Positions 931-5,473 of a stretch of 19,694 nucleotides of DNA are shown here, in pieces; positions within the stretch are counted from its first letter, which is position 1, and each line of letters starts with the position of its first letter. The translations under genes were made by a program, and so were the position numbers. The stretch is from positions 1 through 19,694 of the IMG/VR virus record IMGVR_UViG_2703718835_000001. One strand, written 5' to 3'. The notes beneath the pieces were generated by a model, which was not told the origin of the DNA, made no database searches, and was given only the letters and a program-made list of their open reading frames with translations. This stretch comes from a virus. Its lineage: Duplodnaviria; Heunggongvirae; Uroviricota; Caudoviricetes.

Positions 931-3341
931 GCCATGCCGATATGAGCAACTGCTGCGGCTTTAACGAGGCTGCCGCATCGTTCTCATGGAACAGCCCGAA
1001 AAAGGCCATTAACCCTTATCTGGACCCGGCGGAAGTTGCGCCGGTTTCTGCGCTTTCAAACCTGATCACTCTGTACGCTGCCGATAACGAGCAGGAACAA
1101 CTGCGCCGCGAGGCACTGAGTGATCAGGTCTGGGAGCGTTATTTCTTTAATGAATCCCGTGATCCTGTCCAACGCGAAATAGAGCAGGATAAGCTCATTA
1201 GCCGGGCAAAGTTGGCGCATGAGCAGCAGCGTTTTAACCCGGACATGGTCATTCTGGCAGACGTCAGCGCCCAGCCCTCCCATATCAGCAAGCCGCTGAT
1301 GCAACGTATTGAATACTTCAGCAGCCTGGGCAGGCCAAAGGCTTATTCCCGCTATTTACGTGAGACGATTAAGCCATGTCTGGAACGACTGGAGCATGTA
1401 CGCGACAGCCAGCTATCTGCATCTTTTCGTTTTATGGCAAGCCATGAAGGGCTGGACGGCCTGCTGATTCTGCCTGAAATGAGTCAGGATCAGGTGAAAC
1501 GCCTGTCTACTCTTGTCGCTGCGCATATGAGCATGTGCCTTGATGCAGCTTGTGGTGATTTGTATGCCACCGATGACGTTAAGCCAGAAGAAATCCGCAA
1601 GACATGGGAAAAGGTGGCAGCGGAAACCCTGCGTCTGGATGTCATCCCGCCTGCGTTTGAGCAACTCCGTCGGAAAAGAAACCGCCGTAAACCCGTGCCC
1701 TATGAACTCATTCCGGGTTCGCTGGCGCGTATGTTGTGCGCCGACTGGTGGTACCGGAAATTATGGAAAATGCGTTGCGAATGGCGGGAAGAGCAGTTGC
1801 GTGCTGTCTGCCTGGTCAGCAAAAAAGCATCTCCCTATGTCAGCTATGAAGCCGTGATGCATAAACGTGAGCAGCGCCGCAAGTCACTGGAGTTTTTCCG
1901 TTCTCATGAACTGGTGAACGAAGAGGGCGACACGCTGGATATGGAAGACGTGGTAAACGCCAGCAGCAGCAACCCGGCGCACCGCCGCAATGAGATGATG
2001 GCCTGTGTTAAAGGTCTGGAGCTTATCGCGGAAATGCGCGGTGACTGCGCCGTTTTCTACACCATTACCTGTCCGTCACGTTTCCATTCCACGCTCAATA
2101 ACGGCAGACCAAACCCAACCTGGACAAATGCGACGGTAAGACAAAGCAGCGATTATCTGGTCGGCATGTTTGCTGCATTTCGTAAGGCGATGCACAAAGC
2201 CGGGTTGCGCTGGTATGGCGTGCGGGTGGCTGAGCCGCATCATGACGGTACAGTTCACTGGCACCTGTTGTGTTTCATGCGCAAAAAAGACCGCCGCGCC
2301 ATTACTGCATTGTTGCGTAAGTTTGCCATCCGTGAAGACCGCGAGGAACTGGGTAATAACACTGGTCCACGCTTTAAATCTGAGCTGATAAACCCGCGCA
2401 AAGGAACGCCGACAAGCTACATCGCGAAATACATCAGTAAGAACATTGACGGGCGTGGTCTGGCTGGCGAGATCAGCAAGGAAACGGGTAAATCCCTGCG
2501 TGATAACGCTGAATACGTTAATGCCTGGGCGTCTCTGCATCGTGTTCAGCAATTCCGCTTCTTTGGTATTCCGGGACGTCAGGCTTACCGTGAACTTCGC
2601 TTGCTGGCTGGTCAGGCGGCAAGGCAACAGGGTGACAAAAAAGCAGGTGCGCCGGTACTGGATAACCCGCGTCTTGATGCCATTCTGGCTGCTGCTGATG
2701 CTGGTTGTTTTGCCACCTACATCATGAAGCAGGGCGGCGTACTGGTTCCCCGCAAATATCACCTCATCAGAACCGCTTATGAAATCAACGAAGAGCCAAC
2801 CGCCTATGGCGATCACGGTATTCGTATTTATGGCATCTGGTCACCCATTGCAGAGGGCAAGATCTGCACTCATGCAGTGAAGTGGAAAATGGTTCGTAAG
2901 GCCGTTGACGTTCAGGAGGCGGCAGCCGACCAGGGCGCTTGCGCCCCTTGGACTCGTGGCAATAACTGTCCCCTTGCTGAAAATTTGTACCAACAAGGGA
3001 AAGACAAATCAGCTGATGGAGATACCAGAACGGATATCACCCGCATGGATGACAAGGAGTTGCACGATTACCTGCACAGTATGAGCAAAAAAGAGCGCCG
3101 GGAACTGGCAGCAAGGTTACGCCTGGTGAAACCGAAACGGCGTAAAGACTACAAACAGCGAATTACAGATCATCAGCGACAGCAGCTCGTGTATGAACTG
3201 AAGTCCAGGGGATTTGATGGCAGCGAGAAAGAGGTCGATTTACTGCTTCGCGGCGGCAGTATTCCGTCAGGAGCAGGCCTGCGTATCTTCTATCGAAACC
3301 AGCGTTTGCAGGAAGATGATAAGTGGCGAAACCTGTATTAA
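927..3341 (+). CDS. A: Rolling-circle replication initiation endonuclease, P2 gpA family
   Basis: 804-aa ORF. Contains '[13 protein letters not shown]' (HUH-type metal-binding motif) and '[12 protein letters not shown]' (catalytic tyrosine region), as remembered for P2 gpA. The start overlaps the dam stop (ATGA); the true start may be a downstream Met. Confidence 0.88.
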
Positions 3342-3433
3342 TTACGCGGGTTAACAATTCGTGCTCTTAATAATACCAGGCATATCAGGCTGATGAGCGT
3401 AAAAAAACGTTTTACATCAGTAAGATTATTATA

Positions 3434-3453
3434 TACTGTAAATATAAACAGTG
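3434..3453 (+). promoter_or_regulatory. LexA (SOS) box overlapping a sigma70-like promoter
   Basis: TACTGTAAATATAAACAGTG fits CTGT-N8-ACAG with an AT-rich spacer (consensus TACTGTATATATATACAGTA). It overlaps a candidate -10 (TATACT/TACTGT), with a -35-like TTTACA at 3411-3416, about 40 bp upstream of the ATG at 3494. Confidence 0.65.
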
Positions 3454-3493
3454 GTTATGTATACAGTATTGCTTTGGTGTCATAGGAGGAAAG

Positions 3494-3682
3494 ATGCAGG
3501 ACTATTTTTTGGAGTCTTTGAAGCTCCAGCGCATTGATTTTTTTCTTAAGCTTGTAGCGGCCAGTGAGTGTAGTGATGAAGAGAAGGGGCTGGCTCTGCA
3601 GTGGGTTTCTGAATTGACTGATGAACTCATGGCAAAAATCAGAAGCCACGAATACAACCGCTCAATGGATGTCATCAGCTGA
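3494..3682 (+). CDS. Small hypothetical protein (62 aa), first gene of a putative SOS-regulated operon
   Basis: Strong ribosome-binding site AGGAGG 5-6 nt upstream of ATG. Sits immediately downstream of the LexA box. No recognisable motif. Confidence 0.5.
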   Translation: MQDYFLESLKLQRIDFFLKLVAASECSDEEKGLALQWVSELTDELMAKIRSHEYNRSMDVIS

Positions 3683-3692
3683 GGTGACTTTT

Positions 3693-3926
3693 ATGCGCAT
3701 TGAAATAATGATCGATAAAGAGCAGAAGATTAGCCAGTCTACCCTGGACGCCCTTGAATCCGAGCTTTACCGCAATCTGCGCCCCCTGTATCCCAAAACG
3801 GTAATTCGTATCCGTAAAGGTAGCTCTAACGGTGTGGAACTGACCGGACTGCAACTGGACGAAGAAAGGAAGCAAGTGATGAAAATTATGCAGAAGGTGT
3901 GGGAAGACGACAGCTGGCTGCATTAA
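3693..3926 (+). CDS. DinI-like damage-inducible protein (DinI/ImpC/Tum C-terminal family)
   Basis: 77-aa product 'MRIEIMIDKEQ...LDALESELYRNL...YPKTVIRIRKGSSNGVELTGL...ERKQVMKIMQKVWEDDSW' aligns collinearly with E. coli DinI ('MRIEVTIAK...IDALAGELSRRI...EILQETWE', from memory). Ribosome-binding site GAGGTG upstream. The ORF track lists a longer 3621..3926 frame; the internal ATG at 3693 is preferred. Confidence 0.82.
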   Translation: MRIEIMIDKEQKISQSTLDALESELYRNLRPLYPKTVIRIRKGSSNGVELTGLQLDEERKQVMKIMQKVWEDDSWLH

Positions 3927-4026
3927 GAAACGTTGCTGGCGTCTGAACTTGCTTCTGGCGTCAGCAAGGTTGAACACCAAGCCCTTGCGAGGCGTTAGCT
4001 CTGTAGTGCATGTCTATGCCGCATGA

Positions 4027-4098
4027 GATCGCATGATCGTTTGAGGATCGTTTTTGCTAAGGCCCGCCAGAACTGGCGGGCTTTTGCGTAGATCATGC
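4027..4098. repeat. Cluster of four GATC (Dam) sites with a flanking 8-bp inverted repeat
   Basis: GATC at 4027-4030, 4035-4038, 4046-4049 and 4091-4094: four sites in 68 bp, against roughly 0.3 expected by chance. GCATGATC (4031-4038) and GATCATGC (4091-4098) form an inverted repeat flanking the terminator hairpin. Confidence 0.6.
4062..4085 (+). terminator. Rho-independent terminator downstream of the DinI-like gene
   Basis: GC-rich inverted repeat GCCCGCCAG / CTGGCGGGC (4062-4070 / 4073-4081) followed by TTTT (4082-4085). Confidence 0.6.
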
Positions 4099-4130
4099 AG
4101 GTGCATGAAAACCACTACATAAAGCGGGCA

Positions 4131-4156
4131 GGCGTGGCGGGGATACGAGTGCGCGC
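4131..4156. other. Putative cos (cohesive-end) site
   Basis: GGCGTGGCGGGGATACGAG followed by TGCGCGC. The first 13 nt match the remembered 19-nt cohesive ends of P2 (GGCGAGGCGGGGAAAGCAC) and 186 (GGCGTGGCGGGGAAAGCAT). The assignment rests on memory only. Confidence 0.4.
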
Positions 4157-4231
4157 AATACGGTTCGATAAGAATTCACTTCGACTATGTTTTTAGATAA
4201 TCTGGCAATAAAAGGATGAGGAGAATGGCAA

Positions 4232-5473
4232 ATGCAAAGAATAGTTTTTTACTCTTGGCAATCTGATTTAAATGGAAAATGTAATAGAAATTTAATTCAA
4301 GATGCTTTGGTTAGATCTCTAAAAGCAATAAAAAAGGATGAAACAGAAACATTGGAGCCAGTCTTGGATCGTGATACTAATGGTTTAAATGGCTCACCAT
4401 CAATTAGCGAAAGCATTTTTAATAAAATATCACTTTCAGATGTTTTTGTTGCCGATGTTTCTATCATAAATGGAAGGTCTGAGGATAAGAAGACACCTAA
4501 TCCAAATGTTTTGATTGAATTAGGATATGCAGTATCCCAGCTAGGCTGGGATAGAGTAATCATGGTCCAGAATACATTTTATGGTTCTCCAGAAGAACTT
4601 CCTTTTGACTTAAGAGGACGGAGGGTAATTGCATATACTATGGACCCTGATAGTGATTCAAAACCTGAGGTAAGAAGCTTACTGCAAGGGCGACTTGAAA
4701 CTGCATTAAGGGAGTCCTTGAGTGATTCAAGCCAAGGAGCTATTTCTTCAGGTTTAAATGCACCAATATGGTGGGGGGAGTGGTACAAGGACAATCGCAG
4801 AAGTAATTTTGGCAAATTATTTATTCGTGAAACATCGTCAAATGGTTTTCTTTTTGATTTAGTAGTTATGAATGGATCACATTCTGGGAGTATTACAGGA
4901 GAGGCGGTTTTTGTAGCTAGAGATTCAGCTTACGCTAGAATAAAAATACCTGGAAGTAATGAATTTGGCGAGTTGAGTTTTAGGCGCAGCATATTTGATG
5001 GTAAACGATATATTAGGATAAGTGAGACCGTTAGTTGTCAATACTGGCGAGGTATGGGGGCCTTTTTTGATGGTGAGTTTCGTTGTGCAGAGGATCATTT
5101 GTTTTTATTTGGTTTTGCAAATGAAATGGAACTTCAGAGATTATACAACGTTATGGGGCAATATTACTTTGAACTGAAAAAAGTGATGGAGCAAATAGGT
5201 GAGCGCGATAATCTTGATACTTTTGTCGCAAAGGCTTATCAGGGAGGAGTTAGAGGACTTTATACCATTGCGGAAGGTATGGTGATGTTTGGTAGAGAGG
5301 GCGAGATATGGGCTATTTATCTCAATGATGGTGAAATTCGTTATTTCACAAATGTACATAAATGGAAAAAAACTATTCCAAAAACTTTTGAACAGTGGCG
5401 AGAACGATTTCCAGAGATTGAAATAAATTATGGAGGTGATATCTCGACACTTCCTACACAAGAAGATTTATAG
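4232..5473 (+). CDS. Cargo protein (413 aa) with N-terminal nucleoside 2-deoxyribosyltransferase/Rcl-like (SLOG/TIR-like fold) domain and uncharacterised C-terminal domain; candidate antiphage effector
   Basis: Ribosome-binding site AGGAGA 7 nt upstream. Markedly AT-rich against GC-rich phage flanks. The N-terminal 'RIVFYSWQSD' strand and 'NPNVLIELGYAVSQLGWDRVIMV' (Glu96, codon 4517-4519) resemble the catalytic-glutamate region of nucleoside deoxyribosyltransferases ('GMELGYALSQGKYVLLV', from memory). No Walker A motif, so it is not Old-like. The C-terminal ~270 aa have no recognisable motif. Confidence 0.75.
   Translation: MQRIVFYSWQSDLNGKCNRNLIQDALVRSLKAIKKDETETLEPVLDRDTNGLNGSPSISESIFNKISLSDVFVADVSIINGRSEDKKTPNPNVLIELGYAVSQLGWDRVIMVQNTFYGSPEELPFDLRGRRVIAYTMDPDSDSKPEVRSLLQGRLETALRESLSDSSQGAISSGLNAPIWWGEWYKDNRRSNFGKLFIRETSSNGFLFDLVVMNGSHSGSITGEAVFVARDSAYARIKIPGSNEFGELSFRRSIFDGKRYIRISETVSCQYWRGMGAFFDGEFRCAEDHLFLFGFANEMELQRLYNVMGQYYFELKKVMEQIGERDNLDTFVAKAYQGGVRGLYTIAEGMVMFGREGEIWAIYLNDGEIRYFTNVHKWKKTIPKTFEQWRERFPEIEINYGGDISTLPTQEDL

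Follow-up and report, generated by a model that had tools for sequence, protein, structure and literature searches.

Induction by DNA damage through the antirepressor Tum is textbook biology for phage 186. Tum sequesters the CI repressor and its promoter, p95, is LexA-regulated (PMC7708051), while the interaction between Tum and CI is described as direct, reversible and blocking operator binding (Shearwin et al. 1998, as relayed in PMC3121763 and PMC7708051). In Fels-2 and PSP3, according to passages of Lemire et al. 2011 (PMC3121763), a stop codon divides tum in two, with the antirepressor encoded upstream and the DinI homologue downstream; for PSP3, the same passages quote second-hand a personal communication that the upstream gene is the antirepressor (PMC3121763). 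The antirepressors of the Gifsy prophages inactivate a non-cleavable repressor by binding it (PMC3121763). In E. coli HS, an in-frame deletion of tum (ECHS_RS04495) abolishes mitomycin-C-induced lysis and virion foci (the Phollow paper, PMC12055606), a lexA(Ind-) allele likewise abolishes both, and the tum-deletion strain retains SOS reporter activity (PMC12055606). These deletion phenotypes, taken together with the intact SOS reporter, place the action of tum after that of LexA and before lytic development.

The locus described here lies within a 19,694-nt stretch of DNA, which we refer to as the window. It is a segment of a P2/186-like (Peduoviridae) prophage, and the nearest phage records are Fels-2 and P2-like phages of Escherichia and Klebsiella. 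We consider it highly probable (roughly 90%) that the LexA-box module within this segment represents the split-tum form of the SOS operon from a P2-family prophage of the Fels-2/PSP3 type (186-like). The module was predicted to lie downstream of replication gene A and this is indeed its location, as gpA ends at 3341 and tumA, the first gene of the pair, begins directly downstream at 3494. The same placement after gene A is found in HS, Fels-2, 186 and the divergent loci considered below. The features of the region, several of which are predictions, are as follows.

73-930, Dam methylase gene, upstream of gene A in the same prophage segment
927-3341, replication protein A (gpA) gene; PF05840, E 2e-127
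3411-3416, + strand, -35 hexamer TTTACA of the putative SOS promoter (p95 equivalent), read from the sequence
3434-3453, + strand, predicted LexA (SOS) box TACTGTAAATATAAACAGTG, the first 6 nt of which double as the -10
3449-3468, + strand, degenerate LexA-like site CAGTGGTTATGTATACAGTA, a possible feature only, of uncertain function
3484-3489, + strand, Shine-Dalgarno sequence AGGAGG of tumA, read from the sequence
3494-3682, + strand, tumA, 62 aa, Tum-type antirepressor by homology (equivalent of the N-half of 186 Tum)
3665-3694, + strand, weak hairpin over the tumA stop and the tumB Shine-Dalgarno sequence; dG -9.4 kcal/mol, z -1.45
3693-3926, + strand, tumB, 77 aa, DinI-like protein; Pfam PF06183
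3930-3970, + strand, strong hairpin lacking a U-run, in the 3' untranslated region; dG -21.6 kcal/mol, z -4.7
4062-4085, + strand, predicted intrinsic terminator of the SOS operon; dG -23.4 kcal/mol, z -5.0
4232-5473, + strand, TIR-domain gene, 413 aa, 3' of the SOS operon

Past the TIR-domain gene, the window continues with portal, terminase, capsid, lysis and tail genes. A separate observation concerns the record of Escherichia phage 500465-1 (L002, NC_049342.1, 1-3513), in which gene A is broken by an IS21-family (IS100kyp-like) element and several genes (portal, terminase and the tum region) are annotated in fragments. Due to this fragmented annotation, the record is a poor guide to the tum locus.

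One of the key features of the module is its predicted LexA box. The sequence TACTGTAAATATAAACAGTG at 3434-3453 matches the LexA consensus TACTGTATATATATACAGTA at 17 of 20 positions, and it is unique in the window in two respects: it is the sole CTGT-N8-ACAG on either strand of the 19.7 kb (0.28 expected) and the sole 20-mer with three or fewer mismatches to the consensus, with none found in 200 shuffles. The near-consensus SOS box of the original prediction is therefore present, and so is its proposed overlap with a promoter -10, since the box begins with TACTGT (3434-3439), which follows TTTACA (3411-3416) after a 17-bp spacer. At the level of sequence, the putative promoter is thus overlapped by the box in the same layout as the annotated p95 of 186, the -10 of which is likewise the TACTGT of its own LexA box. 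A generic sigma-70 promoter scan did not call the SOS promoter of the window, because TACTGT agrees with TATAAT at just three of six positions. The -35 hexamer, the promoter and the LexA box are identical in the window, E. coli HS and Fels-2, and we infer that LexA occupies the box at 3434-3453. The box lies about 40 bp upstream of the 62-aa ORF, as expected from the original prediction, and the ribosome-binding site anticipated ahead of this ORF is the AGGAGG at 3484-3489.

The distance of 40 bp exceeds the 15–21 bp that separates box and start codon in most other lineages, and this is attributable to the second, degenerate site, CAGTGGTTATGTATACAGTA. This site has five mismatches to the LexA consensus, with a perfect right arm and GTGG as its left arm, and it shares bases with the right arm of the box at 3434-3453. 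In HS and Fels-2 the arms of the degenerate site are retained while three spacer bases vary, and the site is absent from the other lineages compared.

Conservation of the box extends well past these close relatives. Among divergent TumA homologues from unrelated assemblies (35–52% identity), all of those examined directly follow gene A and each has a near-consensus LexA box 15–41 bp upstream of its start codon. With the exception of one locus (L009), where one arm carries a single-base variant (CTGG), the box is a strict CTGT-N8-ACAG in all of them and the sole one in its locus. The flanking DNA of these loci is otherwise unalignable, and the persistence of the box amid such flanks is therefore more than chance. 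A similar survey of 20 species-representative genomes from other genera yielded a strict box in 13, a single-base arm variant in five and no box in two; three of the five variants adjoin truncated or frameshifted genes, and at the two loci lacking a box, a full gene A match is likewise missing from the DNA immediately before the homologue. Judged from these comparisons, the predicted LexA box upstream of tumA is a clear phylogenetic footprint.

The tumA gene itself runs from an ATG at 3494 to a stop codon at 3680-3682. The counterpart of its product in DuoHS, a prophage of E. coli HS, is ECHS_RS04495 (100% identity), and that in Fels-2 is STM2728 (97% identity). The protein is assigned to phrog_698 of PHROG (E 5.9e-38). 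Searches of Pfam, NCBIfam and PADLOC and a PDB sequence search all returned no match for the 62-aa ORF, and a phmmer search of 1.8 billion representatives recovered only small standalone relatives and no Tum-like N-terminal fusion. An AF2 model of TumA is a two-helix hairpin (pLDDT 87.8), for which Foldseek found just generic helical hairpins (E > 0.5), and the fold is consequently silent on function. As a side note on annotation, the protein is labelled "hypothetical protein" by RefSeq and "unknown function" by PHROG 698, one UniRef entry and one Klebsiella phage record name it "levan regulatory (domain) protein", and neither Pfam nor NCBIfam offers a model for it.

The original prediction had suggested aligning both ORFs of the module to 186 Tum, and the outcome differs between the two. 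The second ORF aligns readily, as TumB matches residues 71–145 of 186 Tum, its C-half, at 41% identity (E 3e-24), whereas BLASTP gave no alignment at all between the 62-aa ORF and 186 Tum. For TumA, a comparison of profiles was needed for this reason, and HHalign was used to compare a profile of 29 diverse relatives with one of the family of the 186 Tum N-half. This comparison aligned residues 1–44 of both with a probability of 96.5% (E 7.8e-10) at an identity of 17%, and the two profiles have in common the motif ExxxxxRI(D/E)xxxxLxxxxxCxxxxxxxAL. The N-half of 186 Tum also matches phrog_698, the TumA family (E 5.9e-6), and both proteins match phrog_8554 and phrog_1993. Taken together, TumA is a remote homologue of the N-half of 186 Tum, recognizable only at the profile level.

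Given that remoteness, it is conceivable that TumA induces the prophage by a route other than the sequestration of CI, for example via Apl/CII, RNA polymerase or a host factor. The 17% identity in the profile alignment leaves room for such a change, the generic helical hairpin offers no informative structural match, and binding of CI by TumA is, in this subfamily, a prediction from homology. However, the half of Tum to which TumA is homologous belongs to a CI inhibitor (PMC7708051, PMC3121763), antirepressor activity in PSP3 is assigned to the upstream gene in the passages of PMC3121763 mentioned above, and TumA co-occurs with a 186-type CI of similar divergence. For the latter point, the cognate CI was observed in relatives, since the window does not reach the immunity region of this prophage: carriers of an identical TumA (HS and QDFD216) encode a 186-type CI bearing PF07022 and PF16452, with 32% identity to 186 CI. 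Sequence comparison thus indicates that the CI repressor has diverged alongside the antirepressor and to a similar degree. We regard a mode of action independent of CI as very unlikely, and direct binding of CI by TumA is what homology to 186 Tum and the statement on PSP3 would both suggest.

The functional case for the 62-aa gene comes from E. coli HS. The primers NHR24 and NHR28, published for the deletion of tum, match the window at 3482-3496 and 3680-3702, and they fuse the ATG to the TGA of exactly the tumA ORF. The HS phenotype alone does not fully separate tumA from tumB, since the leftover ATG-TGA could lower translation of TumB. Nevertheless, together with the literature on the Fels-2/PSP3 pair, the deletion of this identical gene bears out the original proposal that the two ORFs are a split form of a Tum-like antirepressor. 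The other option raised at that stage, a RecA/SOS modulator, holds by homology for the downstream ORF only. In its strongest form, this second option would make the DinI-like protein the functional product of the module and the 62-aa ORF an irrelevant leader or a decaying tum fragment, which would be in keeping with the curated family match of the second ORF alone and with the uninformative RefSeq and PHROGs labels of the first. Against this, the length of the 62-aa ORF and its key residues W37, E40, L41 and R13 are conserved in homologues from across Enterobacterales with as little as about 35% identity, the ORF is retained in lineages without a DinI gene, and its loss abolishes induction in E. 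coli HS (PMC12055606). A module that serves solely to modulate SOS is for these reasons highly improbable.

The DinI-like ORF was predicted to follow after 10 bp, and it does so: the tumA-tumB gap is 10 bp, holds a GAGGTG, and leads to the tumB ATG at 3693. TumB (77 aa, 3693-3926) covers the full 63-position model of Pfam PF06183 (E 6.6e-23, 81.3 bits against a cut-off of 24.2) and is 100% identical to its counterparts in HS (ECHS_RS04500) and Fels-2 (STM2726.1); the Fels-2 record likens its own DinI-like copy to PSP3 TumB. Chromosomal E. coli DinI (PDB 1GHH) aligns with TumB end to end (E 2.7e-6), including the C-terminal W-E-D/E acidic helix. TumB nonetheless scores just 42.7 bits against the cut-off of 111 for the host DinI equivalog NCBIfam NF007893, and it is therefore a phage paralogue rather than an orthologue of host DinI. 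Based upon this family membership, TumB probably acts as a modulator of RecA filaments. The weak hairpin at 3665-3694, in which the end of tumA with its stop codon is paired to the region of the tumB Shine-Dalgarno sequence, might speculatively couple the translation of the two genes, its stability being no greater than that of shuffled sequence.

The arrangement of the two reading frames raises a further alternative, in which programmed +1 frameshifting or transcriptional slippage would yield an active Tum-like fusion of about 140 aa, as in 186, where the two halves are fused. The DinI frame is open from 3621 (ORF 3621-3926) and overlaps the last 62 nt of tumA, and an A5 run lies within this overlap. 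Set against this, tumB is equipped with a separate Shine-Dalgarno sequence (GAGGTG) and a separate ATG, and the offset between the tumA and dinI frames varies by lineage, being 1 in the window, HS and Fels-2, 2 in loci L011 and L012, and 0 in L035 and L036, such that no single recoding event is conserved. Because the offset varies, the fact that the DinI frame overlaps tumA in the window is no evidence for recoding. Furthermore, the DinI gene is missing from 18 of the 20 species-representative homologues as well as four divergent loci, the 186-type N-half is also found alone as a protein of 63 aa, and 186 itself translates its DinI-like part separately as well, from an internal GTG preceded by AAGGAGG. 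With offsets not conserved and the DinI gene often absent, we rejected a programmed frameshift, which we consider extremely improbable.

The same distribution is informative about the form of the system. A DinI gene is present in the lineage of the window, HS and Fels-2 and in the four loci for which other offsets were given above. By gene content, the standalone small predicted antirepressor is the common, conserved core form, to which a DinI gene is an optional addition. The fusion of antirepressor and DinI is found in 186 and, as far as sampled, in few other lineages, and among the loci and database matches sampled the 146-aa fusion of 186 appears to be the rarer arrangement. Two loci (L039 and L040, 1501-1692) encode a 186-type Tum N-half as a standalone 63-aa "Tum protein" gene after gene A, followed by a cytosine DNA methylase gene in place of a DinI-like gene. 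As for abundance, 1281 of the 5426 complete genomes of E. coli, or about a quarter, have a match to the module.

At the 3' end of the operon, the terminator placed at 4062-4085 by the original prediction was recovered by folding (dG -23.4 kcal/mol, z -5.0). Its stem is composed of GC (4062-4069/4074-4081) and is followed by UUUU; a simple terminator scan missed it, because its U-run has just four U. An Rfam search of 3300-4300 returned no RNA family. The terminator falls within a block (4008-4160) that is conserved 3' of a cargo slot in HS and Fels-2. This slot, a variable part of the SOS operon that separates tumB from the conserved block, consists in the window of a gene-free 83-nt spacer with a hairpin (3925-4007); in HS, Fels-2 and E. 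coli 23CRST010 it holds a gene instead, encoding 225 aa in HS, 243 aa in Fels-2 and an HNH endonuclease in 23CRST010 (slot coordinates in relatives: L008, 13053-13893; L005, 3432-4274; L041, 1007-1726). The HS and Fels-2 slot genes are mutually unrelated, and when both were tested as possible homologues of 186 orf97, neither proved to be homologous. Any gene in the slot between tumB and the terminator would be LexA-controlled.

A second variable cargo region extends from the SOS operon to the portal gene. In the window it contains the TIR-domain gene (4232-5473), the product of which matches the Pfam CAP12/Pycsar TIR family (E 6.7e-6) and PADLOC TIR effector models (E 1.8e-9) and has no NCBIfam match. 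In other members of the group, the region encodes a SEFIR-domain protein (QDFD216) or a Hypoth_Ymh protein (vB_EcoM-813R9), and HS and Fels-2 carry other genes there before the portal. The TIR-domain gene is likely anti-phage defence cargo.

Based upon these features, the operation of the module can be outlined as follows. In the lysogen, host LexA bound at 3434-3453 would keep the operon silent, because the box overlaps the promoter -10. Upon DNA damage, activated RecA would trigger self-cleavage of LexA and the promoter would fire, with transcription presumably ending at the terminator at 4062-4085. TumA would then bind the 186-type CI non-covalently and stop it from binding its operators, and the loss of CI from the operators would derepress the early lytic promoter and permit lytic growth. 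TumB would not be an antirepressor; it would most likely bind RecA filaments and thereby tune the strength or the duration of the SOS signal. Due to such a LexA-controlled Tum operon, the prophage would be inducible by DNA damage despite having a repressor that RecA does not cleave. The split-tum DNA-damage switch is already known and published, and this is an ordinary instance of it. The sole practical value lies in annotation, as the 62-aa protein could safely be renamed Tum-family antirepressor (TumA).

It is also conceivable, though in our view unlikely, that the LexA-controlled unit is more than an induction trigger. In some lineages, TumB could damp or reshape the co-protease activity of RecA once the phage is committed. 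If so, TumB could restrain co-resident prophages with RecA-cleavable repressors or allow induction to be reversed. The slot between tumB and the terminator would place accessory genes under SOS control, and partial read-through of the terminator would bring the TIR-domain gene under SOS control as well.

When the locus is compared with the described systems, its closest counterparts are those of PSP3, HS and Fels-2, the last two of which differ from the window in carrying an extra cargo gene between tumB and the terminator and in having genes other than the TIR-domain gene 3' of the terminator. The operon of 186 shares with the window its position downstream of gene A, and the CI targeted by 186 Tum and that of TumA carriers belong to one two-domain family. 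However, 186 encodes both halves of its 146-aa Tum in a single frame, whereas the window has two ORFs, and its box lies 18 bp from the start codon rather than 40 bp. The two also differ downstream, as the p95 operon of 186 is followed by orf97 and two terminators (t95a and t95b), of which t95b is the positional counterpart of the window terminator. [quoted passage not shown] In the Gifsy operons, however, dinI comes first, the reverse of the order in the window, and these prophages are lambdoid, with repressor families that differ from those of the 186-like phages.
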